The notes under the pieces are model-generated. The model was not told where the DNA came from, did no database searches, and saw nothing but the letters and a program-made list of their open reading frames with translations. Positions 1,645 to 46,054 of a DNA stretch of 64,000 nucleotides are shown one piece after another. Both the position numbers and the translations under genes were made by a program. Position 1 is the first letter of the stretch, and each line of letters begins with the position of its first letter. The DNA is from an uncultured delta proteobacterium (GTDB taxonomy: Bacteria > Desulfobacterota > Binatia > UBA9968). The DNA is taken from assembly GCA_963816145.1 (NCBI GenBank), contig CAWFJP010000031.1, positions 320,001 to 384,000 on the forward strand, written 5' to 3'.

Positions 1645-1982
1645 TGTTCCGCAATCATCGAGCTAAAACTAAGATGGATCATTAATTGTAGGCAAGAGCG
1701 TTCTTGAATGCGCGGCAGATGTTGGTCGGTTGAGTGACGTTGATGTGCGTCTACACACCCCGCCAGCCGAGTTGGAATAGTCGGTTTCCGCAGATTGGTT
1801 GATAGATGGGTTTGAGCCTGTGATCTTTTTGAATGTCGATGACGAGTAAGTCGCACGTGACCTGGAGGTAGCCGCCGGTGAAAGCCATCTCTGAAGTTAC
1901 CGACTTAGGTCTTGGGTCGGCGTCCGAGTGAACCGCCAACGCAAGCAACCTTCGATTCGATCGCTATTCACCTGATCCGTTC

Positions 1983-2010
1983 CGACCATTTGGTCGACAG
2001 TTTCGACGCT
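1983..2010 (+). promoter_or_regulatory. Enhancer-like double palindrome, copy 1
   Basis: CGACC-ATTT-GGTCGA-CAGTT-TCGAC-GCT; near-identical copies at 4243 and 11238. Confidence 0.75.
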
Positions 2011-2090
2011 AATGGCTAGCGGTTTCTTGATTTTCCTCTGTCAGCCTTACGAAGTGATCGAAAATAAAGACTTTTCCCCGTTGGAAGGCC

Positions 2091-2105
2091 TGGCACCGAT
2101 CGTGC
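2091..2105 (+). promoter_or_regulatory. sigma54 (-24/-12) promoter
   Basis: TGGCAC-CGATC-GTGC, with the GG 109 bp after the enhancer start. Confidence 0.7.
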
Positions 2106-2147
2106 GCTGCTAATACGTAGAATCAACGAAACGGAAAAGGAGTGACT

Positions 2148-2228
2148 ATGGATACTTTATTGATCGTTCTCATCGTGTTGTTTGTACTCGGCGGTGGCGG
2201 TTGGGGATATTCTCGCTGGCGCCGGTAG
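2148..2228 (+). CDS. 26-aa single-TM microprotein (MDTLLIVLIVLFVLGGGGWGYSRWRR)
   Basis: AAGGAG RBS; hydrophobic helix then GGGGWGY and a basic tail; not in the ORF track. Confidence 0.8.
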   Translation: MDTLLIVLIVLFVLGGGGWGYSRWRR

Positions 2229-2267
2229 CACCAGCGATTAACCAGATGAAAGAAAGGAAAAACAGGC

Positions 2268-2342
2268 ATGAACAACATATTTTACATTGTCGGTGTTGTT
2301 GTGGTGGTGATCTTCGTTGCCGGGTATCTCGGTCTGAGGTAG
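2268..2342 (+). CDS. 24-aa single-TM microprotein (MNNIFYIVGVVVVVIFVAGYLGLR)
   Basis: AAGGA RBS; pure TM helix; follows the previous microprotein. Confidence 0.75.
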   Translation: MNNIFYIVGVVVVVIFVAGYLGLR

Positions 2343-2400
2343 GCCGGAGGGCCGGACTTTGGCGATGAGCTTCTTGGTTATCTGTTTAATCGCCACGGTC

Positions 2401-2475
2401 TAACTCCCCGCAGCTTACTGCAATTGTTTGATAGGTTCGAACTGACACCCCGCTGCTTGCGGCGGGGTTCTTCAT
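2401..2475. repeat. Short hairpin element resembling IS200/IS605-type end remnants
   Basis: CCCCGCAGCTTACTGC...CCCCGCTGCTTGCGGCGGGG paired hairpin motifs. Confidence 0.4.
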
Positions 2476-2563
2476 ACCTGTCCAGTACCGGACGGTACTC
2501 TCTAATGAGTAAGCTAAAGTTAACCACTCAAAAAACCCATACTGAATGACGGAGGAATGCTCG

Positions 2564-3094
2564 ATGAACCAAGACATTTTTGCAGGGCAATGGAAGCAAA
2601 TGCGCGGCGAGTTGAAATCGTGGTGGGGCAGACTCGCCGATGACGACTTGGAACGAATCGGCGGTCACAAAGACCAGCTTATCGGTTTAGTGCAGGAGAA
2701 ATACGGTTACGCCCGCGAGCATGCCGAGCAAGAGGTGGAGCGGCACCTCAAAGAGTTTAGCGACAAAACGGATGGAGCCGTCGCCAATATGACTGCCAAG
2801 GCGCAGGAGCTTGGTACGGCTGCCGCGAACAAGGCCAACGAAGCGGCCACAGTCGTCGGCGAGAAAATCGGTTCGCTGGCGCATGTGATTCGGGAAAATG
2901 CTCCGCACGACGGACCGGTGGCAACCGCGGCGACTGTGGTAGTCGATGGGCTGGAATCTACAAGCTCTTACTTGCGCGAGAAAAAATTCGACCATCTGGC
3001 AAAAGACGTCACGGCTTTGGTCCGCAGCTATCCTGTGCGAGCGTTACTGATCGCTGTCGGCCTTGGCTATTTGCTGGGTCGGCGCCCGAGATAA
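2564..3094 (+). CDS. CsbD family protein with ElaB/DUF883-like C-terminal membrane anchor
   Basis: MNQDIFAGQWKQMRGELKSWWGRLADDDL..; C-term VRSYPVRALLIAVGLGYLLGRR; GGAGG RBS. Confidence 0.85.
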   Translation: MNQDIFAGQWKQMRGELKSWWGRLADDDLERIGGHKDQLIGLVQEKYGYAREHAEQEVERHLKEFSDKTDGAVANMTAKAQELGTAAANKANEAATVVGEKIGSLAHVIRENAPHDGPVATAATVVVDGLESTSSYLREKKFDHLAKDVTALVRSYPVRALLIAVGLGYLLGRRPR

Positions 3095-3385
3095 AGCATG
3101 GACACCGGGGGTCCAAATCCTAGAGACCGACTTACTAGCCATTACTCTGTCCTGCAATAAATGGATGCATCAACTGTAATCAAAAGTTTCAATGGCCTTT
3201 TACCGAGATACACTAACGAATTTGCCTCTGGAACGGCGGTTGACCAAAAGGCACGACTTAGACCCATGTCGGATTGCCCGCAATGCGGATGGTGATTGCG
3301 AGGTGTCGTGCCACAACCTTACCCCTACGGTAGATCGTGTGAGAGATCAGAACAGAAATATTTTCTTTGGAAAGACGCTGACACT

Positions 3386-4033
3386 ATGAAATCGTGGGCC
3401 GACTTTAAAAGTATCCTGCCCTACGCGAGTGACTTATTCGGAGTTTATCAGCCGCTACGACGCTGGAAATTTCGCATTATTGGCAATCTTTTCGACAAAT
3501 TTCGCAACGCGCTCTATCCTAACCTTGCTGAGCAGGTGCGGTCGTCGCAGCTTGCGCCGTTGCAAGGGCAACTCGAACGGGAGACAGGCGCAGAATTGGC
3601 GACCGATACCGGACGTCAAGCGCCAAGTATCAGCGACCCCAAGCCGGTTGCCTTTGTCAGCGAGGTGCCGCCCCCACTGGCACCCGCTATCGACTGCGGT
3701 ATTGCTCGGTTGTTACAACGCGATATCGGCAGCAACCCGCCGCGGGATTGGGGGCGCTTGATCACAACCGAATCGATGACGACGCGGCTGGAGAAGTTGA
3801 AAACCATTGTCGCCAAACCTGCTGAATTACAAAATTTTCCCGATATCGCTGATTACGTTCAAAGCTTCACCCAGGCGATCGCTACCAGCGATCAAGCCCA
3901 GCTCATGCAATCGATGTTCGATAAGGAAGCACGTCTCTCGGGTTTTTTGCTCTTCCTCGCACGGCACAAGCCGACTCAATTGAACGAAATATTTTTCACC
4001 GCGCCACAGGCGGATAATCGTCCGGCTGCCTGA
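3386..4033 (+). CDS. Hypothetical protein (possibly a truncated fragment)
   Basis: Long ORF, no recognised motif. Confidence 0.45.
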   Translation: MKSWADFKSILPYASDLFGVYQPLRRWKFRIIGNLFDKFRNALYPNLAEQVRSSQLAPLQGQLERETGAELATDTGRQAPSISDPKPVAFVSEVPPPLAPAIDCGIARLLQRDIGSNPPRDWGRLITTESMTTRLEKLKTIVAKPAELQNFPDIADYVQSFTQAIATSDQAQLMQSMFDKEARLSGFLLFLARHKPTQLNEIFFTAPQADNRPAA

Positions 4034-4242
4034 AAATCACGGCTTGGACCGCGTGGCATTTGGGGCACGTGTGTGACGAGCCAACGTGCATTTACCGAGC
4101 TACGTCCACCCCTTTGGCACTGTAGTAAGGACGCGGATTGCTTGCGGCCGGGAATTACCCGCCAGCCTCTGAACTGATGGCGGCATGCCGCACAGTCGCC
4201 GGTAATCAATCTTTTTTAACTTACTCACCGCTGGTTCTTATT

Positions 4243-4270
4243 CGACCTTTTGGTCGAGAGTCTCGACGCT
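4243..4270 (+). promoter_or_regulatory. Enhancer-like double palindrome, copy 2
   Basis: CGACC-TTTT-GGTCGA-GAGTC-TCGAC-GCT. Confidence 0.75.
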
Positions 4271-4350
4271 TTTAACGAGCCATCTGTTAAATGCAACCAG
4301 CCCGCCTCAATAAGCTCTCGGAAACATGGTCTTTCCCTTGCCGTAATGTT

Positions 4351-4365
4351 CGGCACAGATAGTGC
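4351..4365 (+). promoter_or_regulatory. sigma54 (-24/-12) promoter
   Basis: CGGCAC-AGATA-GTGC, with the GG 109 bp after the enhancer start. Confidence 0.65.
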
Positions 4366-4414
4366 TCCAGATAATTGGCGTTAGAAAACTAAATCCAAAA
4401 CTAGGAGATACACT

Positions 4415-4561
4415 ATGCGGTCGATCATTTTCGCAGGAGTTATGTTGTTGCTGTTAGGCACGAACGTGGCTTGCAACACGGTTCATGGTGTCGGGCAAGA
4501 CATCGAGCGGGCGGGCGAAAAGACTCAGGACGCGGCGGACGCCGTGAAGAAAAAATTGTAG
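4415..4561 (+). CDS. Entericidin A/B family lipoprotein (48 aa)
   Basis: MRSIIFAGVMLLLLGTNVACNTVHGVGQDIERAGEK; ACNTxxGxGxDI motif; AGGAG RBS; not in the ORF track. Confidence 0.9.
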   Translation: MRSIIFAGVMLLLLGTNVACNTVHGVGQDIERAGEKTQDAADAVKKKL

Positions 4562-4726
4562 TCCGATCAAAGAAATGAAATGCACGGAGTCTTTAACTCG
4601 GGCCAGCTGGAGCAGTCATTTCGTGAATACAGGCCTAACCATATTTCTTTGCAAACTCGTCCAAAATTAGACAGCCAATCCTGACTTGTCAGCGTAGAGA
4701 AGGGCTCCATCGCTTATTAGGCGGAT

Positions 4727-5062
4727 ATGATGAATGTTTTCAGTCGTGCGGCAGCGGGTTTAACTATGGTCTTGGCGGTGACGGTAAGCACGGGTTGCAT
4801 GGAAAACATCGCGCTAGTGGGCAGACCTACGCTTCAATTGGATCAAGATGAGGCCAGTCCAGGTGCCAGGATGCAGACGCTTGACGGGCGAGTGGAGCAG
4901 CTGGATTTTCAGCGCCGATACTTCCAAATCCGCGATCAGTCCAGAGAACTAGTCATCGTTTCCCTTTCGTCCAACGCTGAGAGATTAGATGTGGATCGTT
5001 TCCGGGCGCTTCGAGATGGCGATTACGTACGAGTCGAAGGGAGATTTCTCGATCGACAATGA
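4727..5062 (+). CDS. Putative lipoprotein, probably degraded (frame continues past the TGA as FELATFLRDNR)
   Basis: Lipobox STGC; OB-fold-like 'GDYVRVEGRF' end. Confidence 0.55.
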   Translation: MMNVFSRAAAGLTMVLAVTVSTGCMENIALVGRPTLQLDQDEASPGARMQTLDGRVEQLDFQRRYFQIRDQSRELVIVSLSSNAERLDVDRFRALRDGDYVRVEGRFLDRQ

Positions 5063-5140
5063 TTCGAGTTGGCTACTTTCCTTCGCGACAACCGATAACG
5101 ATTTACCATCGGCGCTGTTTAAGCCGATGAGGGAGAAACG

Positions 5141-5812
5141 ATGAGATGCCTTCGGGCTATAGCCATTTTGATCCTTGTCGCACTGCCAATCGGTTGCGCG
5201 CTGGAGACTTCATCTCGCAGGCCGGCACCACAGGAAACGCGTCCCGCCGCGAGCAGCCGACCGCTGGATGCGAGGCAGACGGAGCGAGTGCAGCGAATCA
5301 TGATGCCGTTGCTCCGCGCGACGAATAACCCGCGCCGTTTAAACGAGATCCGAGTTCGCGTTCTTGACGATCCAAACATCAACGCTGCCAATGCGGGGGA
5401 CGGCGAGTTTCAAGTGACGACCGGTCTTCTGCAAAAAGCCAACGATGAGCACCTAAGAGGGGTGCTGGCTCACGAGATTGCTCACGACGATCTTGGCCAT
5501 GTGGCCAGAGCGCAGACTTTGGGTACGGGTCTCAATATTGGCGTGATTCTACTCGAACAGCTTTTTCCGGGCAGCAGTGCGGTGACCCCGATCGCGGGCG
5601 CACTGATAGCCAATAGCTACAGCCGCTCAGAGGAACTCGAAGCGGACAGTCACGGTGTCGAGATCTTACGTCGGGCTGGTTACTCTAAAGAGGTAATGAT
5701 CGACTCGCTGACATGGCTGCTGCAGATCTCAGGAGGCGACAGTGGTGGTGGTTTCTTGTCCACTCACCCGGCGACTGAGGATAGAATCGCCGCTTTGAGA
5801 AAGTTGGCATGA
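5141..5812 (+). CDS. M48 family zinc metallopeptidase lipoprotein
   Basis: Lipobox PIGC, NA.N, HEIAH, YSR..ELEAD, FLSTHP. Confidence 0.9.
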   Translation: MRCLRAIAILILVALPIGCALETSSRRPAPQETRPAASSRPLDARQTERVQRIMMPLLRATNNPRRLNEIRVRVLDDPNINAANAGDGEFQVTTGLLQKANDEHLRGVLAHEIAHDDLGHVARAQTLGTGLNIGVILLEQLFPGSSAVTPIAGALIANSYSRSEELEADSHGVEILRRAGYSKEVMIDSLTWLLQISGGDSGGGFLSTHPATEDRIAALRKLA

Positions 5813-5913
5813 AGGGCGCGTCTTTAGTGACTGCACAACTTCTGAATGAGTAAGATGAAGGAAGAACAGGTTGGAAATAATTACGTTTCAAAAACAAGCC
5901 ATTGAGGTGATTT

Positions 5914-6225
5914 ATGGTACGGACATTCAAAAGGTTAGCAGCGACGGTGGCATTTCTATTCTTGATAGCCGGCTGCCAAGCGATGACAGGCGAGACCGCG
6001 GGGCAGAACATCGATGACGGAGTTCTCACATCATCGGTCAAAACCTCACTCGCAGGCGAGCGGGTTAACACCCTGTCACGTGTGGGAGTCGAGACCAACA
6101 ACGGCATTGTGGTCCTTACCGGCGAAGTCGAGACCGCCCAGGAGAAGTCGCGTGCTGGAACGGTTGCCTCGCAGGTAAAGGGCGTCAGACAGGTCGTCAA
6201 CAACCTGCAAGTCATCAAGCGTTAG
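5914..6225 (+). CDS. BON domain lipoprotein (OsmY-like)
   Basis: IAGC lipobox; DDxxLTxxVK, VETNNGIVVLTG, VKGVRQVVNNL. Confidence 0.9.
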   Translation: MVRTFKRLAATVAFLFLIAGCQAMTGETAGQNIDDGVLTSSVKTSLAGERVNTLSRVGVETNNGIVVLTGEVETAQEKSRAGTVASQVKGVRQVVNNLQVIKR

Positions 6226-6269
6226 ACGTGGCTATGAAACGCGAGCGCATTCGATCGGAGGAGAAATCT

Positions 6270-6572
6270 ATGACAAGCAATAGCGAATCCAAATCTACCC
6301 ACTTACTTATCGGCCTGGCAGTGGGAGCGATCGGCGGACTCGTCGCCGCGATCCTGGCCCATAGAGAGACCCGCGAGGCGTTGCGTGAACGCAGCGAAAA
6401 AAGCTTGGACTACCTCAATCAGCAAGCGGGCAAGCTGCGCGAGACCGCCGATGTTATCGTGCAACAGGGGAAAAAGCTCATCGCTTGCAGCGGCTCCGGC
6501 TCGGTCGATCACTCTACGGAGGCCAGTAAGCAGGCCTATCAGGAAGGCAAGCGAGAAAACTTAGGCGGCTAA
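6270..6572 (+). CDS. YtxH domain-like stress protein
   Basis: LIGLAVGAIGGLVAAILA..ETRE.L; GGAGGAG RBS. Confidence 0.75.
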   Translation: MTSNSESKSTHLLIGLAVGAIGGLVAAILAHRETREALRERSEKSLDYLNQQAGKLRETADVIVQQGKKLIACSGSGSVDHSTEASKQAYQEGKRENLGG

Positions 6573-6614
6573 AGTATCGCCAGCCAGTTTTATAGAAGGA
6601 TAAGGACCTAAAAA

Positions 6615-6788
6615 ATGCTTTGGCTTATTTTTGCACTGCTTTTAATGATGGGCGTCGTCAGCTTTTTCACTTCGTACACGATGCTTGGCGGAGGGGTTCA
6701 GATTGTACTGATTGGCGCGCTGGGGGCGCTTGGGGTCAAGCGCATTGGTGCAGTATCGAGCCGCATTCGGCGCTATCAGGTGGATTAG
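6615..6788 (+). CDS. 57-aa lmo0937-like membrane microprotein
   Basis: MLWLIFALLLMMGVVSFFTSYTMLGGGVQIVLI; AAGGA RBS; not in the ORF track. Confidence 0.65.
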   Translation: MLWLIFALLLMMGVVSFFTSYTMLGGGVQIVLIGALGALGVKRIGAVSSRIRRYQVD

Positions 6789-6821
6789 CCATTTCGTCTC
6801 AAAGACGAAGGAATAAATACG

Positions 6822-7053
6822 ATGCGTCTTAAATCCGATAACGCTTGTGGGAATCGCTCTGATCGTGCTGGGCATCGTCGCGTTCGCCTACAAGGGGATC
6901 ACCTACACAAGCCGCGAGAAGGTGATCGATATTGGCCCCATCCATGCCACCGCGGATACCCAGAAAACCATCCCGTTGTCGCCTCTTTTGGGCGGATTGG
7001 CGCTGGTCGGTGGCATTGTGTTGGTGGTGGTCGGAGCGAAGAAGTCGTCGTAA
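6822..7053 (+). CDS. DUF3185-like two-TM small protein (1-nt frameshift near the start; alternative GTG start at 6847)
   Basis: GIALIVLGIVAFAY.GITYT.REKVIDIGPI..T..KTIPLSPLLGG; the RBS-led ATG at 6822 is off by one base. Confidence 0.75.
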
Positions 7054-7213
7054 CGGCAAGGCAGCGCCGCACCGAGGAAGTAACTGCGCGGCGAAAGCGA
7101 CCGAGGGGCGAGCTGCACTACCTTGAACGGGAAGCAGGTCGACGGGGCGAGTTGGCATTGTAGGAGTCCTGTCGCGGCGATTGGGCTAGGAATACAGATG
7201 ATCTGGAGAAATC

Positions 7214-8434
7214 ATGAACCACGGTGCCATCGCTGGAACGCATCGTCGAATCGCCATGCTCGGCAATCACTTGCCGCGCCAGTGCGGTATCGCTACCTTT
7301 ACGACCGACCTCAGCGGCGCGATCGCCGCGGAGGTCTCTAACGCCGATTGTATGGTGGTTGCGATGAACGACGCCGGTAAACAGTACGCGTATCCCCCGC
7401 GGGTTCGTGTAGAGGTGGCCGAGGGCGACATCGGGTCGTATAACCGGGCAGCCGATTATTTGAACGCTAACAAGATCGACGTCGTGTCCGTGCAGCACGA
7501 GTATGGCATTTTCGGCGGCAAGGCCGGTAGCTACTTACTCACGTTTCTGCGCAAGTTGCGCATGCCGATCGTGACCACCCTTCACACCGTCCTCGGCAAG
7601 CCGGATTCCATGCAGCGTCGAGCCATGAACGAGATCACCCGACTCTCGAAGCGACTCGTTGTCATGAGCGCCCATGGCGCCGTCCTGCTTCATAATGTTC
7701 ACGGCGTGCCTGAGCACAAAATCGATACCATCCCGCACGGGATTCCGAGCGTGCCTTACGGATCAAGCACTAAGAAAGAACTCGGGTTCAAAGGTAAGTC
7801 GGTGATTTTTACCTTCGGACTGCTATCGCCGGATAAAGGCATCGAGCATGTGATCGATGCCCTGCCGGCGATTCTTGTGCGGTATCCCAACACGATTTAC
7901 GTCGTCCTCGGCGCTACCCATCCACATGTCAAAGAGCGCTATGGGGAAAGCTACCGCGAAAGCCTAGAGCTTCGGGCACAAGAACTCGGGGTGGCATCGA
8001 GCGTGATCTTTCACAACCGTTTCGTGAGCCGCGGTGAGCTCGTCAAGTTTCTCGCGGCCGCCGACATCTATGTCACGCCGTACCTCAAACCGGAACAGAG
8101 CACGTCCGGGACATTGGCCTATGCGGTAGGCTCGGGCAAGGCGGTCATTTCCACGCCTTATATTTATGCCCGGGAACTCCTCGCCGATGGGCGCGGGATA
8201 CTGGTACCGTGGCGAGATTCGCAGACCATCACCCGCGCGGTGGTGGATCTCTTGGGCGACGATGTAAAACGAGCCGCCCTCTGCGCCCGTGCCGCCGCTC
8301 ACGGCCGCAGCATGGTCTGGCCCGCGGTGGCGCGTCGCTACCTGCAGAGCTTCGACCGGGCATGCAGTCGAGAACAATCGATGCCTCGGGTTGGCCTGGA
8401 ATTAGACGATCGAGATCGCCGGGTCTTAACTTAA
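7214..8434 (+). CDS. Glycosyltransferase family 4
   Basis: PRQCGIATFT, QHEYGIFGG, FGLLSPDKGIE, SGTLAYA.G.GKAVISTPY. Confidence 0.9.
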   Translation: MNHGAIAGTHRRIAMLGNHLPRQCGIATFTTDLSGAIAAEVSNADCMVVAMNDAGKQYAYPPRVRVEVAEGDIGSYNRAADYLNANKIDVVSVQHEYGIFGGKAGSYLLTFLRKLRMPIVTTLHTVLGKPDSMQRRAMNEITRLSKRLVVMSAHGAVLLHNVHGVPEHKIDTIPHGIPSVPYGSSTKKELGFKGKSVIFTFGLLSPDKGIEHVIDALPAILVRYPNTIYVVLGATHPHVKERYGESYRESLELRAQELGVASSVIFHNRFVSRGELVKFLAAADIYVTPYLKPEQSTSGTLAYAVGSGKAVISTPYIYARELLADGRGILVPWRDSQTITRAVVDLLGDDVKRAALCARAAAHGRSMVWPAVARRYLQSFDRACSREQSMPRVGLELDDRDRRVLT

Positions 8435-8475
8435 GAAACTGGCGAGACGCAAAAACTCAATTGGAGGTTTACTCA

Positions 8476-9129
8476 ATGAACAGTCTCTCTGTATATCAAA
8501 CCGCACACATGAAATATCCGTATACCCTGCCTACGATCGAGTATGCGTATGACGCACTCGAGCCGTACATTGACGAGCCAACGATGCATTTGCACCATGA
8601 CAAGCATCATCAGGCTTATATCGATCACGCCAATGAAGCGGTCGGCAAATATCCTGAGCTGCAGAAAACCGATCTAGTGACCCTATTGGCTAACCTTAGC
8701 GATTTGCCTGCCGATATCAGGACGCCGCTGCAAAGCAATGGCGGCGGCCACCTCAACCATGCGTTATTCTGGGAATACATGACGCCACGGGGTGGCGGCG
8801 AGCCTCAGGGCAAGCTACTCCAGGCGATTATAAAGACATTTGGCGGATTCGCTCATTTTAAAGAAGAATTTGATGCCGCTGCTAGAAATCGCTTGGGCAG
8901 CGGATGGGCTTGGCTTACCGTGACGCCTACGGGGGACTTGGAGACTAGTTCAACGCCAAACCAAGATACTCCGTTATCAAACGGTCAACTGCCGATTTTA
9001 GCTCTCGATGTCTGGGAACACGCGTATTATCTCAAGTATCACAACCGGCGGCCCGAATACATTACGAACTGGTGGCACGTGGTGAACTGGAAAAAGGTCC
9101 AGGAACAGTTCGACAAAATTACCGGTTAG
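8476..9129 (+). CDS. sodA: Superoxide dismutase, Mn-type
   Basis: HHDKHH, NGGGHLNH, GSGWAWL, NQD, DVWEHAYY; GGAGG RBS before 8476. Confidence 0.9.
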   Translation: MNSLSVYQTAHMKYPYTLPTIEYAYDALEPYIDEPTMHLHHDKHHQAYIDHANEAVGKYPELQKTDLVTLLANLSDLPADIRTPLQSNGGGHLNHALFWEYMTPRGGGEPQGKLLQAIIKTFGGFAHFKEEFDAAARNRLGSGWAWLTVTPTGDLETSSTPNQDTPLSNGQLPILALDVWEHAYYLKYHNRRPEYITNWWHVVNWKKVQEQFDKITG

Positions 9130-9600
9130 CCGGGCCGCAAAACACCCGACGCTTAACTGCGGTTTTAGAGTGAAAGGAACATCGACGTCAATACCAGCCG
9201 CAGCGATAATCAGATCGAAACTTCATTGGGAGGCCTTAGATAGCTGCCGTCAGCGAATGCACCTTTGAATATGCCGCCGATACCAGGAAAGCCTATGGTC
9301 TCGCCCATCTGGTTTTGGTTGAGTTGCTGAAAAAGGTTAGTTTCGGAAGCAAAAGCCGCGAACGGTACGTTCCCGGAACCCTGCTGCAGCATTGAGTAGG
9401 TGTCACTGCGCAATAATGCCCGATAGGGATAATCTAATATAAGTCCTTCTTTTCGCAGATTGATGACTTAACGAACGATTACAACGTCTAAGAGGGTGTG
9501 GCCCAGCAAAAGTAACGGCACCGAGGATAGCGACTCGTGGCAGTGTTCACGATCGCGCATTATCTCAAACTTACGCACCCGAGTCTGCAGGAGGAGAACC

Positions 9601-10647
9601 ATGAAAAGTAATATCGTAAATCGGATGGTGATGGCACTTGTCATCAGCACTCTGGCGATGCCGGGGATCGGCCTTGCGGCCGAAGGGCAGCAAAACGTGC
9701 AGGAAGAGCAAAAACGCGCAAAGGATGAAAAGCAGCAACAGCGAAAGGAAAATCAGCAGCAGGATCAGGTTCAAAGAAAAGCTGAACAAGATCAGAAGCA
9801 ACAGCAACAACGCGCTCAGCAACAGGAAAAGCAGCAAGCGCAAAAGCAGCAAGCGCAAAAGCAGCAGCAAGTCCAGCAGCAGCGCGAGCGCGCGCAGCAA
9901 CAATCAGAACAAGACCAGAAAGAAATACGCGCGTGGCAGGAGCAGCAGCGCGAGCGGATTGAGCGCCAGTCGGAACAAATCGAGCAGCAGCGCGCGCAGC
10001 AACAGAAGCAATACCAAATTCAGGAACAGAGACAACAACAGCGTCTGTCCCAGCAGCAGCAACAACAGCGGATCAAAGAGCAGCAACAAAGTGTCGCGCA
10101 GTACCGCCAACATCTGGAACAGGAGGAGCGTCTCGCACGAGAGCATGCAGCGCAACTACAGCAACAAAGGCGCATGGCCCAGTATCGCTTTCAAGAAGAG
10201 TATCTAGAGCGCCTACGGCAGCAGAATAACTACCTGCGGGACCATCGGTTCGACTACGATAATGACCCGTATTTCTACACCCCGCCGATCTATCGTTACA
10301 ATCGTGGCGGCAAGTACTATCAAATCAACGAATATGGTGCGAAGTGGTTACGCCAGGCGGTCAGATATGGTTATGAAGAAGGTTTCCGCGCCGGCAAGGC
10401 AGACCGCGAAGACCGTTGGCGTGGCGGCAGTTACAAAGACTCATATGCTTATAGGGACGCAAACTATGGTTATAACGGCTATTACGTAAACCGGAGCGAT
10501 TACAACTACTACTTCCGTGAGGGTTTCCGACGCGGTTATGAGGATGGTTACAATAGCCGCTATCAATATGGCCGCTTTGATAACGGAAACTATTCGATCT
10601 TGGATAACATTTTGTCACAAATCCTCGGTTTCCAGAATCTTCGCTAA
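9601..10647 (+). CDS. Secreted Gln-rich low-complexity protein with Tyr/Gly/Arg-rich C-terminal domain
   Basis: AGGAGGAG RBS; signal peptide; long Q/E/R/K tract; GYxxG repeats. Confidence 0.85.
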   Translation: MKSNIVNRMVMALVISTLAMPGIGLAAEGQQNVQEEQKRAKDEKQQQRKENQQQDQVQRKAEQDQKQQQQRAQQQEKQQAQKQQAQKQQQVQQQRERAQQQSEQDQKEIRAWQEQQRERIERQSEQIEQQRAQQQKQYQIQEQRQQQRLSQQQQQQRIKEQQQSVAQYRQHLEQEERLAREHAAQLQQQRRMAQYRFQEEYLERLRQQNNYLRDHRFDYDNDPYFYTPPIYRYNRGGKYYQINEYGAKWLRQAVRYGYEEGFRAGKADREDRWRGGSYKDSYAYRDANYGYNGYYVNRSDYNYYFREGFRRGYEDGYNSRYQYGRFDNGNYSILDNILSQILGFQNLR

Positions 10648-10658
10648 CCAATGGTCAT

Positions 10659-10692
10659 CTATGCCTCGGGGTTGCGCAACCCCGAGGCATAG
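10659..10692. repeat. Perfect 34-bp palindrome (hairpin or terminator-like)
   Basis: CTATGCCTCGGGGTTGC|GCAACCCCGAGGCATAG. Confidence 0.8.
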
Positions 10693-10779
10693 CTCGCCAA
10701 CCCAGAGCGGCGCGCATTTTGGACTGCTGTCAATGAACGCGATGGAATCGCCAGCGACCTGTGCTGCTTTCGATACTCG

Positions 10780-11023
10780 GCGATGGTTATGGATGGCGTC
10801 TGGGCAACCGTGGGAAGCACGAACCTTTATTACCGTTCCCTCGCCATCAATGAAGAAACTCAATCTTGCCGTCAACGACGCAGGTGTCGCTGCGCAACTC
10901 GAGAAAACTTTTCAGGAAGATCTGCAGCATGCTAAAAAGTTGACTTACGAAGCTTGGGAGTCGTGTCCCTTGAACGGTAAGATCCCGGAATTGTTTTCCA
11001 TCCCGATCAAAGAGCAGTTGTAG
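10780..11023 (+). pseudogene. Cardiolipin synthase/PLD C-terminal remnant
   Basis: MDGVWATVGSTNL..RSLAINEE, then frameshift into LNLAVND..VAAQLE..FQEDL. Confidence 0.7.
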
Positions 11024-11237
11024 GCAGCGCCGCCTTTATCGTACGGCATTCTTCTCGGTAGCGCTGCTTTTGCTCAACTCAGGCTTGCGCAGGATCGTTG
11101 GTTACAGCGCATCCAGCACCGGCTTCGGACGTCGGCTCGACCGCGACCGCCGGCGTTTTCCGACTCGCTGCTGCAACCGGCCTGGCGCAACATGTGGACT
11201 GCGCCTGGACTCATGCCTCACATAACTCGCTGTGACT

Positions 11238-11265
11238 CGACCTTCTGGTCGATCGTTTCGACTCT
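11238..11265 (+). promoter_or_regulatory. Enhancer-like double palindrome, copy 3
   Basis: CGACC-TTCT-GGTCGA-TCGTT-TCGAC-TCT. Confidence 0.75.
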
Positions 11266-11346
11266 TTCACCGACCTCGACCTCATTCCGCTTCTGGCCCT
11301 ATCGATAATCCCTAACGAAATCGAGTTCCTCCAGCTTTCCGAAGCG

Positions 11347-11361
11347 TGGCACGTAAGTTGC
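11347..11361 (+). promoter_or_regulatory. sigma54 (-24/-12) promoter
   Basis: TGGCAC-GTAAG-TTGC consensus, with the GG 110 bp after the enhancer start. Confidence 0.8.
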
Positions 11362-11407
11362 CCTATATCGTTATTGAGAAAAGCGAATGGAAAGAAGGTA
11401 ACTGACT

Positions 11408-11557
11408 ATGAGCCTGATTCTGTTGATCGTATTAGTTGTGTTGTTGGTGGGTGGTCTGCCTAACTGGGGTTATCACTCGTTTGGTTTTGCGCCGTCGGGC
11501 CTAGCCGGCGTGGTGCTGCTGGTGCTGATTGTGATGCTCTTGACGGGCCGGCTCTAA
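11408..11557 (+). CDS. DUF3309 family microprotein (49 aa)
   Basis: MSLILLIVLVVLLVGGLPNWGYHSFGFAPSGLAGVVLLVLIVMLLTGRL; not in the ORF track. Confidence 0.9.
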   Translation: MSLILLIVLVVLLVGGLPNWGYHSFGFAPSGLAGVVLLVLIVMLLTGRL

Positions 11558-11629: not shown

Positions 11630-12310
11630 ATGATTCAGCAGACCCCGGAAGCGGAACGATTCAAAGAACAAATGCGCGAGTCGCTGCAGCACGAGACCAT
11701 GAACTCTCGCGCGGTGACGATCCCGCGGCACTCAAATATTTACACGTGCGGCGACCAGGACGAGATGGTTTATTTTATTGAGAGCGGCCAGGTCAAACTA
11801 CTCATGCTCTCGCCCGAAGGCAAAGAGTGTCTCTTGGCCATCCACAGCAGAGGCGATATTTTTGGTGAGTTATGTTTGTCCGGGTTAGGCGAGCGCCACG
11901 AAACTGCGGTGGCAATGAAAGAAACGAAAATAAAGCAAATCGCCTGCGATCAATTTTTTGCGCGTTTAAACCGCGACTCGCTGTCAGAGGGGTTCGTGCG
12001 CTACCTTGCCGTGCGTATAGCCGACCAGCAGCAGGTCATTGCCAACCTTGTGACCGTGGACAGCGAGCAGCGGCTGGGCCAGACGTTGTTGCAGTTGGCG
12101 CGCACCATGGGCAAGAAGGATCCGCGCAGCATCCGCATCGAGCTCAAGATTTCCCATGAAGAATTGTCTGAAATGGTCGGCACGACGCGGCCGAGGATCA
12201 GTTTGTTTATGCAGAGATTTCGCAATCTTGGGCTGATCGAAACGAATGCAGACCATTTTCTCGTCATCAAGGAACACAAACTCACCGATTACTTGGCGCA
12301 GATCGCCTAG
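11630..12310 (+). CDS. Crp/Fnr family transcriptional regulator
   Basis: cNMP-binding fold (YFIESGQVKL, GDIFGE) and HTH (SHEELSEMVGTTRPRIS). Confidence 0.9.
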   Translation: MIQQTPEAERFKEQMRESLQHETMNSRAVTIPRHSNIYTCGDQDEMVYFIESGQVKLLMLSPEGKECLLAIHSRGDIFGELCLSGLGERHETAVAMKETKIKQIACDQFFARLNRDSLSEGFVRYLAVRIADQQQVIANLVTVDSEQRLGQTLLQLARTMGKKDPRSIRIELKISHEELSEMVGTTRPRISLFMQRFRNLGLIETNADHFLVIKEHKLTDYLAQIA

Positions 12311-43562: not shown

Positions 43563-44058
43563 TTAAGGGATTACAACCGTGTCGATGACATGGATCACGC
43601 CGTTGCTCGCCATAATATCCGTGGTCACCACTTGCGCGTTGTCGACCATGACCTTGCCGTCGGCGACATTAATCTGTAAGGCGCGACCGTTTGCGGTCTT
43701 CGCGCTTTTAAGAGTTACGACTTCGCTGGCGGTCACTTGCCCGGGCACTACGTGGTAGGTAAGAATCGCTTGCAGTTTGCCAAGATTCTCCGGCTTGAGG
43801 AGACTTTCCACCGTGCCGGCCGGCAACTTTGCAAACGCTTCGTCGGTCGGCGCGAACACCGTCAACGGTCCTTTGCCCTTGAGTGTATCGACCAATCCCG
43901 CCGCCTGGACTGCGGCCACCAAGGTCTTGAATGATCCGGCCGACACCGCGGTATCGACTATGTCTTTTTCCGGCGCCATTTCAGCTTTCGCCGCTCCGGC
44001 CGAGACCCAAACCCACACTGATCACCATCGCCCCTAACGCTGCTTTGAAGATTCTCAT
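43563..44058 (-). CDS. Secreted fasciclin (FAS1) domain protein (1-nt frameshift near 44001)
   Basis: [37 protein letters not shown]; AGGAGG RBS. Confidence 0.9.
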
Positions 44059-44112
44059 TTCACTTTCCTCCTTTTTAATTTTTTTTGTGAACCTTCCTGA
44101 TCCGAGTGTAGA

Positions 44113-44127
44113 GCAAGCGCGGTGCCA
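44113..44127 (-). promoter_or_regulatory. sigma54 promoter of the fasciclin gene
   Basis: TGGCAC-CGCGC-TTGC consensus on the minus strand. Confidence 0.85.
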
Positions 44128-44199
44128 GATCTCATTGGGGGTGATTTCTATTGGATTTAACAGGACAAAATCGCTGCGCAGAAAATAGTCGCAGTTGGA

Positions 44200-44261
44200 T
44201 GAGACAACCCATGAGACAGCCAACTGTCTCAAAGCTGTCTCACGCTGTAGCAGCTGAGACA
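44200..44261. promoter_or_regulatory. Enhancer with five TGAGACA/TGTCTCA half-sites
   Basis: Copies at 44200, 44212, 44225, 44236 and 44255. Confidence 0.75.
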
Positions 44262-44266
44262 GTGAG

Positions 44267-46054
44267 TTACTTTTCGCGTGAGGGAATATTGAGATCGGCG
44301 AGGCGGCGATAGAATGTCGCCCGGCTGATGCCCAACAGCCGTGCCGCCTTGGCGCGATTGCCGCCGGCGCGATCGAGCGCTTGCTGCAATCTGGTCTTCT
44401 CATCCGTCGCTGAGCCTGCGGCGACTGGTTCGACGAGGTCGTCCAGGCTGGGGTGGACTTCCGGCGGCAGGTCGTCTTCCTGAACGACGCTGCCCTTGCA
44501 ACCGATGACCGCGTATTCGACAGCGCTTTTCAGTTCCCGGACGTTACCCGGCCAATCGTATTCGGAGAGCAGTCGAAGCGCTTCCAAACTCAGTTCCTTG
44601 ACCGGTTTATCGCTCGCCGTCGCGAATTGAGCGAGAAACGACGCGGCCAATAACTGAGTGTCTTCACGCCGTTGGCGCAGCGGCGGCAGCAGGATGCGCG
44701 CGACCCGGACACGGTAAAGCAAGTCGGAGCGAAAGTTGCCTTTAGCCACTTCGTCGCTTAGCGTTCGGTGCGTTGCGGCGAGCACGCGCACGTCGATCTT
44801 GCGCGGCTTGGACTCGCCGAGACGCAGGATCTCGCGTTCCTGGAGCACGCGGAGCAGTTGGTTCTGCACGGTCATCGGGATATCGCCGATCTCGTCCAAG
44901 AACAAAGTGCCGCCATTCGCCGCTTCGAATAATCCCTGGTGATCCTCGACGGCGCCGGTGAAGGCGCCGCGCTTGTGGCCGAAGAGTTGACTGCCGAGTA
45001 GAGAGTCGGTGAGGCCGGCGCAATTGACGGCGATGAAAGGTTTGTCTTTGCGGTGACTCGACGCGTGGATGGCGCGCGCGACCAACTCCTTGCCGGTGCC
45101 GGTCTCGCCTTCGATGAGCACGGTGGCGTCGACCCGGGCGACATCGCGGATTCGCTGATAGACCAACTGCATACCGCTGCTCTTGCCGAGCAGGTCGTGA
45201 AAGCCGGCGCGCTCGTTGAGCAGCAGGCGCAGGTCATGAACTTCGCTGACGTCATAGAGCAAGAATATCTTGCCGCGGGCGTCGCGCGGATCGTCTTTAA
45301 TCTCGACCTCAAGCCAGGTCCGTCGCCCATCCTCGAGATCGAGATGCACCGGCACTTTGTTGCGTTCCGGTTGCGGTTTTCGTTGCAGTTCCAGCAGCGT
45401 ATTGAGATCTTCATGATCCAGCGGAAATACCTCGTGCCAAACCTGGCCGTAGGCGCTGGCGCCGCGGCTGCCGAGCAATTGACGCGCTATGCGGTTCAAA
45501 AATACCAGCCGGCCCTGTTCGTCGGTCATCGCTGTTCCAAGGCGCAGCTCATTCAGGATTGAGCTCAGATCATTGCGGCTTTTTTCTACCTCCGACAACA
45601 GCTCGGCGAGCTTGGCTTCGGCCAGCTTGCGCGCCGTGACGTCCCGTTGGATCGACAGATACTGGACGGTCTGGCCGCGCTCGTCGCGCACCGGCGAAAT
45701 ATCCCAGGCGACAACGTACTCGCTGCCGTCCTTGCGATAGTTGATGGTTTCGGCCGAGTAGCTCCCGCCGTTGCTGAGAGTCTCGCGCAGCCGTTTGAGC
45801 ATGTCGCGATCGGTTTTGGGCCCCTGGAGGATGCGCGGCGTCTTGCCGAGAATGTCGCTTCGGCTATAGCCGGTCATTTCGGTGAACGCCGGATTGATGA
45901 AAATCACCTCCGGCCCCGGAACATCGAGGTTGGCGGTGGTGATCAGGATCGCTTCCCGGGCTTGTTGCACCGCGGCATCGAGCAGACGGAGCATCTGCTC
46001 TTCATTCAAGTGACTTAGAGAATGCGCCGCGGTGTCACTTTTCTGCTCGCTCAT
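44267..46054 (-). CDS. sigma54-dependent activator (PAS-PAS-AAA+-Fis HTH)
   Basis: GETGTGKE, GAFTGA, LFLDEIG, WPGNVREL, HTH; N-terminal LOV-like PAS. Confidence 0.93.
   Translation of the reverse strand: MSEQKSDTAAHSLSHLNEEQMLRLLDAAVQQAREAILITTANLDVPGPEVIFINPAFTEMTGYSRSDILGKTPRILQGPKTDRDMLKRLRETLSNGGSYSAETINYRKDGSEYVVAWDISPVRDERGQTVQYLSIQRDVTARKLAEAKLAELLSEVEKSRNDLSSILNELRLGTAMTDEQGRLVFLNRIARQLLGSRGASAYGQVWHEVFPLDHEDLNTLLELQRKPQPERNKVPVHLDLEDGRRTWLEVEIKDDPRDARGKIFLLYDVSEVHDLRLLLNERAGFHDLLGKSSGMQLVYQRIRDVARVDATVLIEGETGTGKELVARAIHASSHRKDKPFIAVNCAGLTDSLLGSQLFGHKRGAFTGAVEDHQGLFEAANGGTLFLDEIGDIPMTVQNQLLRVLQEREILRLGESKPRKIDVRVLAATHRTLSDEVAKGNFRSDLLYRVRVARILLPPLRQRREDTQLLAASFLAQFATASDKPVKELSLEALRLLSEYDWPGNVRELKSAVEYAVIGCKGSVVQEDDLPPEVHPSLDDLVEPVAAGSATDEKTRLQQALDRAGGNRAKAARLLGISRATFYRRLADLNIPSREK

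Follow-up and report, generated by a model that had tools for sequence, protein, structure and literature searches.

The stretch of DNA analysed here, called the window below, is 64,000 nucleotides (nt) long and covers C31:320001-384000 of genome G000, an uncultured delta proteobacterium. Three sites in this window, named modules C, D and E, are best read as combined enhancers and sigma-54 promoters of a lineage-specific stress regulon, and a two-component system appears to head the same 21-kb island. We assign this reading a probability of about 0.78. Positions without prefix refer to the window.

The motif CGACC-N4-GGTCGA-N5-TCGAC, which the original prediction reported in three copies, is present exactly at 1983-2007, 4243-4267 and 11238-11262, each time on the plus strand. 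In 100 shuffles the motif was matched 0.07 times per shuffle on average when up to two mismatches were allowed. The 7.82-Mb genome contains only these three exact copies, all of them in the window. The accompanying GGCAC-N5-KTGC boxes start at 2092, 4352 and 11348, so that their GG lies 109, 109 and 110 bp downstream, as had been stated. The GG and GC of the boxes TGGCACCGATCGTGC, CGGCACAGATAGTGC and TGGCACGTAAGTTGC are exactly 10 nt apart in a TGGCAC-N5-TTGC-like context. The paired upstream sites begin 109-110 bp before the GG, which is within the 80-150 bp expected of a sigma-54 activator site. Elsewhere in the window, GGCAC-N5-KTGC was matched once (44113-44126, minus strand), and this box belongs to a different activator.

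The anatomy of the modules was determined from an alignment of 35 modules from nine genomes, which yielded the enhancer consensus tCGACC.TTTGGTCGA..gt.TCGACgcTttcgaCGagcc. Site I is a strong 16-bp palindrome (TCGACC-nTTT-GGTCGA), while the weaker 16-bp site II (TCGACgCTTTcgaCGA) starts 21 bp, or two helical turns, after site I. The centres of the two sites are located approximately 127 and 106 bp upstream of the predicted transcription start. The element TCGAC-(G/T)CT, previously taken as a third half-site of one operator, is actually the left half of this second site, 21 bp further on. The linker between enhancer and promoter lacks sequence conservation, as proposed earlier (identity of 0.26-0.53 between paralogous modules), but it is not featureless. 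Counted upstream from the T of TGGCAC, the 35 modules repeatedly have A/T tracts at about 39, 28 and 18 nt, and this spacing of about 10-11 bp probably reflects a bend or a site of the integration host factor type. A leader of around 30-40 nt separates the predicted start from the first gene, and the start codons are found about 155-175 nt downstream of the start of the motif. The sequence ACTATG occurs at the start codons in all three window modules, but is absent from two further modules outside the window.

When the area upstream of the window is included, the proposed regulon of three promoters grows to five; the three are real, but they are not the full set. A search of the genome allowing one mismatch gave seven further matches, two of which (C31:310120 and C31:318985) have a sigma-54 box at +109. 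The region between C31:310,120 and C31:331,361 thereby holds five intact modules and one decayed module, all on the plus strand. The intact modules are located at C31:310120, 318985, 321983, 324243 and 331238 with the GG at +109 or +110, and the first of them (module A) is 9.9 kb upstream of the window. The boxes of these five modules are the only intergenic GGCAC boxes in the region C31:300-345 kb. Genome-wide, 787 palindromes of the type CGAC-N6-GTCG were counted, and a box at a distance of 109-110 bp was found for the five island copies, one copy on C4 and one on C5. The copy on C5 (C5:98450, box at 109) was considered as a further target and dropped, as it is located inside a gene and represents a chance match. 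In the decayed sixth module (C31:318476-318940; L001:18476-18940), the left half-site is degraded and a properly spaced -24/-12 box is missing. The Thivi_2564-type open reading frame (ORF) behind it has kept its first ~31 residues, and its tail resembles the C-terminal part of a neighbouring protein of 74 amino acids (aa). The orthologue of this module in G019 (L035:11310) is intact.

Relatives were examined in a draw of 40 genomes, and a composite pattern (site I, 93-96 nt, box) was additionally scanned over 401 genomes of the class. In the islands of the relatives, 35 of 40 motif hits are followed by a sigma-54 box at +108 to +111, with GG offsets of 109 (19 modules), 110 (8), 108 (4) and 111 (4). 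Boxes of such quality occur at a rate of 3.9e-4 per nucleotide in the genome, which corresponds to 0.06 expected cases among 40 hits. The fixed distance between motif and box, first noticed in the window, is hence kept in further genomic copies and in relatives. The composite pattern was detected in 21 of the 401 genomes, whereas the reversed-pattern control gave 0 hits. It is confined to two families, f1 with 17 of 63 genomes (excluding G000) and f2 with 3 of 4, and a single genome has at most 7 copies. Within the draw, clustered same-strand copies with the nTTT spacer are present in G002, G003, G004, G014, G017, G018 and G019, and single copies in the sister-family genomes G027 and G029.

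Orthologous modules precede orthologous genes in these genomes. In G004, G014, G017, G018, G019, G022, G027, G029, G031 and G381, a module is directly followed by the operon that encodes periplasmic protein, kinase and activator. Among the f1 genomes covered by both searches, 12 (including G000) have an activator with at least 79% identity, and each of these 12 carries at least one composite module. In G002, only a fragment of the activator was found, and G001, the genome of which is 65% complete, has the activator and no motif hit. One match in G025 (C1:1119792) has its box at +101 with neither kinase nor activator nearby and was left out of the 35 modules; in the activator operon of the same genome, a degenerate site precedes the box by 87 bp. 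The homologous operon of family f3 starts with an HtrA-like protease gene and features two related palindromes 22 bp apart, with a TGGCAC box about 100 nt downstream. From this distribution, we infer that the ancestral unit may have been one autoregulated envelope-type operon and the multi-promoter regulon a later expansion.

Module A is followed by three genes coding for an OmpA-like protein, a histidine kinase and an NtrC-type activator. The original prediction assumed that the activator is encoded elsewhere, which is correct in so far as it is not in the window; it is not remote, however, as its gene is part of the same island and follows another copy of the module. This activator is probably the activator of the regulon, and since its operon follows module A, it is apparently self-activating. 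It yielded scores of 109.6 bits for Response_reg, 243.2 bits for Sigma54_activat and 52.5 bits for HTH_8, and its translation contains the GAFTGA motif, the Walker A motif and the receiver aspartates. The nearest named relatives of the kinase are ZraS and AtoS, with ZraS as best NCBIfam match (235 bits, equivalog cut-off 479). The activator is nearest to AtoC (532.6 bits, cut-off 714), ntrC (435.3, cut-off 558.6) and ZraR (433.8, cut-off 760), in all cases under the equivalog cut-off. For the structure model of the kinase, the best match among solved structures is the cytoplasmic domain of ZraS (9jfj, 38% identity, template modelling score of 0.80 on the target); the Foldseek search of the whole model is dominated by the catalytic core and this match does not speak for the sensor fold. 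The model of the OmpA-like protein had a mean predicted local distance difference test score (pLDDT) of 51, which is too low for use. The genome features a single rpoN gene (Sigma54_DBD match at C11:303484-303957, 212.6 bits) and 34 strong matches to the sigma-54-activator domain PF00158, while a profile search of G000 gave no RpoS or SigB equivalog above the cut-off.

A search for related loci with the activator protein returned 80 loci from many phyla with 40-55% identity, which are generic NtrC paralogues and were not used as orthologues. Two stand-alone receiver-domain genes are located directly after the activator gene (C31:314735-315835; L001:14735-15835). They are followed by genes for a GT4 glycosyltransferase and an O-methyltransferase, and the same pair is found in G017. 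The window has an activator of its own, which sits beside a different motif, as had been noted, namely TGTCTCA/TGAGACA repeats. In the region 43900-44400 on the minus strand, the gene of this activator ends near 44270, and the repeats, the box TGGCACCGCGCTTGC (44127-44113) and a short ORF for an exported product follow. Together, these elements make up a separate sigma-54 circuit with a single promoter.

The small ORFs proposed behind the three window promoters are genuine open frames with Shine-Dalgarno-like sequences. A membrane microprotein leads each of the three window modules, but this part of the original prediction does not extend to the whole island, as two of the five modules start otherwise. 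One has the 296-aa OmpA-like protein as first gene product, the other the 74-aa protein, for which no hydrophobic stretch was seen by eye. For the 24-aa ORF, no Pfam or NCBIfam family was matched. Nucleotide differences between orthologues at codon positions 1, 2 and 3 were 119:19:200 for the 26-aa ORF and 35:8:104 for the 24-aa ORF; the further first-gene counts, listed after these two, were 31:13:87 and 129:45:278. The dominance of third-position differences in the first genes fits coding sequence under purifying selection. The first genes that recur across genomes code for the 26-aa, 24-aa, entericidin-family, DUF3309, OmpA-like and 74-aa proteins, a small zinc-ribbon protein and a glycine-zipper lipoprotein.

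Table 1 Coordinates of modules, genes and the paralogous operon (window positions unless a contig or locus is given)
Feature	Position	Strand	Details
Module C enhancer	1982-2018	+	Site I cCGACCATTTGGTCGA (1982-1997); weaker site II TCGACGCTAATGGCTA (2003-2018); 21 bp apart
Module C sigma-54 -24/-12 box	2091-2105	+	TGGCACCGATCGTGC; predicted transcription start near 2117
26-aa membrane microprotein	2148-2228	+	N-terminal half of DUF3309 (22.7 bits, cut-off 22.3; half the model); 8 loci
24-aa membrane microprotein	2268-2342	+	Conserved in 6 loci
CsbD-like protein, downstream of module C	2546-3094	+	Candidate for a transcript shared with the microproteins
Module D enhancer	4242-4278	+	Site I TCGACCTTTTGGTCGA (4242-4257); site II TCGACGCTTTTAACGA (4263-4278)
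Module D sigma-54 box	4351-4365	+	CGGCACAGATAGTGC
48-aa entericidin-family lipoprotein (PF08085)	4415-4561	+	First gene of module D; 30.9 bits (Pfam cut-off 23.3); 5 loci
Co-directional genes after module D	4727-10647	+	Putative members of the transcript: 111-aa lipoprotein, M48 peptidase (5141-5812), BON (5914-6225), YtxH (6228-6572), 113-aa ORF, GT4 glycosyltransferase (7214-8434), Fe/Mn superoxide dismutase (ends 9129), 383-aa ORF
Module E enhancer	11237-11273	+	Site I TCGACCTTCTGGTCGA (11237-11252); site II TCGACTCTTTCACCGA (11258-11273)
Module E sigma-54 box	11347-11361	+	TGGCACGTAAGTTGC
49-aa DUF3309 membrane protein (PF11752)	11408-11557	+	First gene of module E; 57.1 bits (cut-off 22.3); 6 loci
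Crp/Fnr-family regulator	11630-12310	+	After DUF3309; pairing kept in G017, G014 and G018
296-aa exported protein, C-terminal OmpA domain	L001:10290-11180	+	Only OmpA and weak Collagen matches; N-terminal domain without family
Histidine kinase	start near L001:11303, end 13045	+	Periplasmic part of ~280 aa flanked by two hydrophobic helices
474-aa activator	C31:313,046-314,470 (L001:13046-14470)	+	REC, Sigma54_activat and HTH_8 domains
C4 paralogous operon	within C4:412001-430000 (L129)		133-aa Gly/Met-rich exported protein, kinase, activator (C4:419,823-421,229)

Stress-type genes are found downstream of the modules (Table 1), and the island further contains genes for additional GT4 glycosyltransferases and a low-affinity iron permease. 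A weak terminator-like hairpin (2453-2465) is located between the microproteins of module C and the CsbD-like gene. The longest ORF of the Fe/Mn superoxide dismutase gene (8209-9129) is extended by about 100 residues at the N-terminus and runs into the glycosyltransferase gene before it; its true start is probably near 8520. The Crp/Fnr-family regulator may form a second tier of the regulon, because its pairing with DUF3309 is kept in three other genomes. Upstream of module A, genes of the stress type occur without a module of the same kind of their own. These are Hsp20-family and Lon protease genes, 3-6 kb upstream (C31:304153-307037; L001:4153-7037), and a dodecin gene directly before the module. 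The stress gene set of the G000 island is found again in the islands of G017, G014 and G018, and that of G018 adds YflT.

Under the proposed model, the kinase, with its two membrane helices and its large periplasmic domain, would sense an envelope or extracytoplasmic cue and phosphorylate the NtrC-type activator. The activator would then assemble on the paired sites, loop to the sigma-54 holoenzyme and open the five promoters. One of these is the promoter of its own operon, encoding the periplasmic OmpA-like protein, the kinase and the activator, which would create positive feedback. The predicted outputs are the small membrane proteins (26, 24, 48 and 49 aa), CsbD, BON and YtxH proteins, the M48 protease, superoxide dismutase, glycosyltransferases and the Crp-like regulator, which may extend the response. 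In this scheme, the identity of the binding protein, the positions at which transcription starts, the lengths of the operons and the nature of the signal are all inferred. The original prediction of a sigma-54 general-stress regulon of microprotein-led operons is supported on comparative grounds as far as modules and regulon are concerned, but its "general stress" part is drawn from gene content alone. An envelope or extracytoplasmic cue is equally likely, because the kinase has a large periplasmic domain.

A more far-reaching idea, which we regard as speculative and rather unlikely, is suggested by analogy. MgrB is a feedback modulator of PhoQ. A duplicated, ZraSR-like envelope sensor might act as master switch of the general stress and desiccation response, with the leading single-helix microproteins serving as membrane-embedded feedback modulators of the kinase. 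If true, this would be a sigma-54 circuit tuned by its own microproteins.

The modules could also be driven by a paralogous two-component system encoded on C4, either alone or jointly with the island activator, so that two sensors would feed one regulon. We consider this possible, with a chance well short of even. The C4 activator is 66% identical to the island activator. The 133-aa exported protein of the C4 operon gave no Pfam or NCBIfam match, and its conserved core recurs in the N-terminal domain of the island OmpA-like protein. Both activators have the helix-turn-helix ...VQTRAAExLGxxERALRYKLxKYGF, and no other protein of the genome contains ERxLRYKL. The recognition helix ERALRYKL, restricted to these 2 proteins in the genome, is kept in all 18 aligned orthologues and paralogues, and the promoters of orthologues having it carry the same half-sites. 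In addition, the promoter of the C4 operon has CGACCAAATGGTCG, which is the palindrome of module C on the other strand, besides another site and, at +110, a TGGCAC box. Nevertheless, the site pair on C4 is 20 bp apart, not 21 bp, and has the spacer AAAT instead of nTTT. Islands with several copies occur together with the island-type activator (79-90% identical), whereas G006 and G015, which carry only the C4-type activator (67-68%), gave no composite nTTT hit, and their only exact motif match has the AAAT spacer, like the own site of the C4 operon. Co-occurrence favours the activator of the island over its C4 paralogue. Operons of the C4 type, either paralogous or ancestral, were also observed in L138, L044, L045 and L128, where they encode an exported protein of 133-164 aa, a kinase and an activator. 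The exported proteins feature a Gly/Met/His-rich stretch and the core …AKELA..YA…GF.VE…Y.vElKN..GE.R…, without a Pfam or NCBIfam family.

Two other explanations concern the nature of the palindrome itself. Crp/Fnr boxes typically have the format of a 5-N4-5 palindrome, which site I fits, and in 4 genomes the island contains a conserved Crp-family gene. A Crp/Fnr-type regulator, for example the one at 11630-12310, might therefore bind site I, with some other activator serving the sigma-54 boxes. Yet palindrome and box also precede the kinase-activator operon in the f2 genomes and on C4, where no Crp-like gene was noticed among the downstream ORFs by eye, a family scan not being part of that inspection. 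Sigma-54 moreover requires an AAA+ activator bound upstream, and a same-face pair of sites at approximately -127 and -106 is the usual geometry of NtrC-type activators, which makes the Crp/Fnr explanation improbable. The least probable of the explanations, already contradicted by the data, is a mobile or repetitive extragenic palindromic (REP)-like intergenic element with incidental sigma-54-like boxes. Paralogous modules share only the two sites and the box, while their linkers have diverged to the low identity given above, and just 5 intergenic copies exist in 7.8 Mb, in one island and on one strand. The box spacing is also fixed across genera, and the modules keep their place before orthologous genes. 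Behaviour as a mobile repeat, which the original prediction had named as an outcome speaking against it, is not what the linker identities indicate.

Evidence for expression was sought in assembled contigs from four soil metatranscriptome runs, which cannot map transcription starts and in which uncovered parts are uninformative. One RNA contig (2195-2350, 0 differences) covers the end of the 26-aa ORF and the 24-aa ORF. Two RNA contigs, both of the same study, have their first position at 11391 within the predicted DUF3309 leader, and the end of another at 2127 falls inside the predicted leader of module C. The contigs show presence in RNA libraries, no more.

Several observations weigh against the reading as enhancer-promoter modules of a stress regulon driven from within the island. 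RNA contig X17 reaches position 2085, upstream of the -24 box, and X20 (4317-4478) spans promoter D; contigs across the promoter boxes could equally stem from read-through or from carried-over DNA. A scan for terminator-like sites yielded 11 where 15.8 are expected, which is no enrichment, and did not delimit the operons. The NCBIfam scores of activator, kinase and first gene stay under the cut-offs of the named systems, so that no function is transferable from these. In the relatives, no close activator was found despite the presence of modules in G016 (module at the contig end) and G003 (island at the contig start), and for the six composite hits of G398 only an activator homologue with 68% identity was detected. 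In G381 (L140:12587-14007, C17), the activator is split into three overlapping pieces in different frames while seven modules are intact, which is either an assembly error or a broken gene. As the C4 paralogue has the same helix and a near-identical site, the island activator may not be the sole or main one.

Compared to known systems, the wiring is familiar. The ZraPSR system comprises periplasmic ZraP, the kinase ZraS and the activator ZraR. It is described for E. coli and Salmonella as an envelope stress system that depends on sigma-54 (PMC4987338, PMC7657598). The island resembles it in having a membrane kinase with a periplasmic sensor, an NtrC-type activator and a sigma-54 promoter before the gene of a periplasmic protein and the genes of the system itself. 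In contrast to ZraPSR, the first gene of the island codes for an OmpA-domain protein that gave no ZraP/CpxP-type family match in Pfam and NCBIfam, the genes are co-directional and not divergent, and five promoters serve microproteins and general-stress genes. Kinase and activator also score under the ZraS and ZraR equivalog cut-offs.

A second system for comparison is DVU3305 of Desulfovibrio vulgaris, described as an autoregulated sigma-54 response regulator of a "general stress" system (PMC3333781, PMC4641369). As in the island, its neighbouring targets are reported to be membrane and hypothetical proteins linked to general stress, and the binding site to be conserved with the regulator across species (PMC3333781, PMC4641369). 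A Lon-protease response regulator and UspA-domain proteins are listed for that system (PMC3333781, PMC4641369), whereas OmpA-like, entericidin, DUF3309, CsbD, BON and YtxH proteins are found here. The likeness thus concerns wiring and targets.

The textbook case of a paired-site enhancer is NtrC at glnAp2, with which the modules share two same-face dimer sites about 100-140 bp upstream of a -24/-12 promoter and palindromes of the 6-N4/5-6 format. However, the half-site is TCGACC here and TGCACC there, the centre spacing here is 21 bp, the targets in the island are not nitrogen genes, and the ntrC model was matched with 435 bits against a cut-off of 558.6. In their gene content (CsbD, BON/OsmY-like, YtxH, entericidin and superoxide dismutase, with YflT in one relative), the targets are similar to the SigB, RpoS and EcfG regulons, while the island promoters, being of the sigma-54 type, depend on an activator with ATPase activity. 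An NtrC-family two-component system acting at sigma-54 promoters is thus a known arrangement, whereas the target genes and the site are new. In a literature search, no description of this motif or regulon was found.

Taken together, an uncultured lineage of soils and wetlands now has a regulon open to testing, for which the operator is defined, a candidate sensor-activator pair is at hand and the genes are listed. Four conserved microprotein genes (24-49 aa), which the original prediction had reported as missing from the ORF track, were recovered. CsbD, BON, YtxH and entericidin genes, usually tied to SigB, RpoS or EcfG, can sit behind sigma-54 promoters. Within one genus, the single autoregulated operon of the sister families would have grown into a regulon with five to seven promoters or more.

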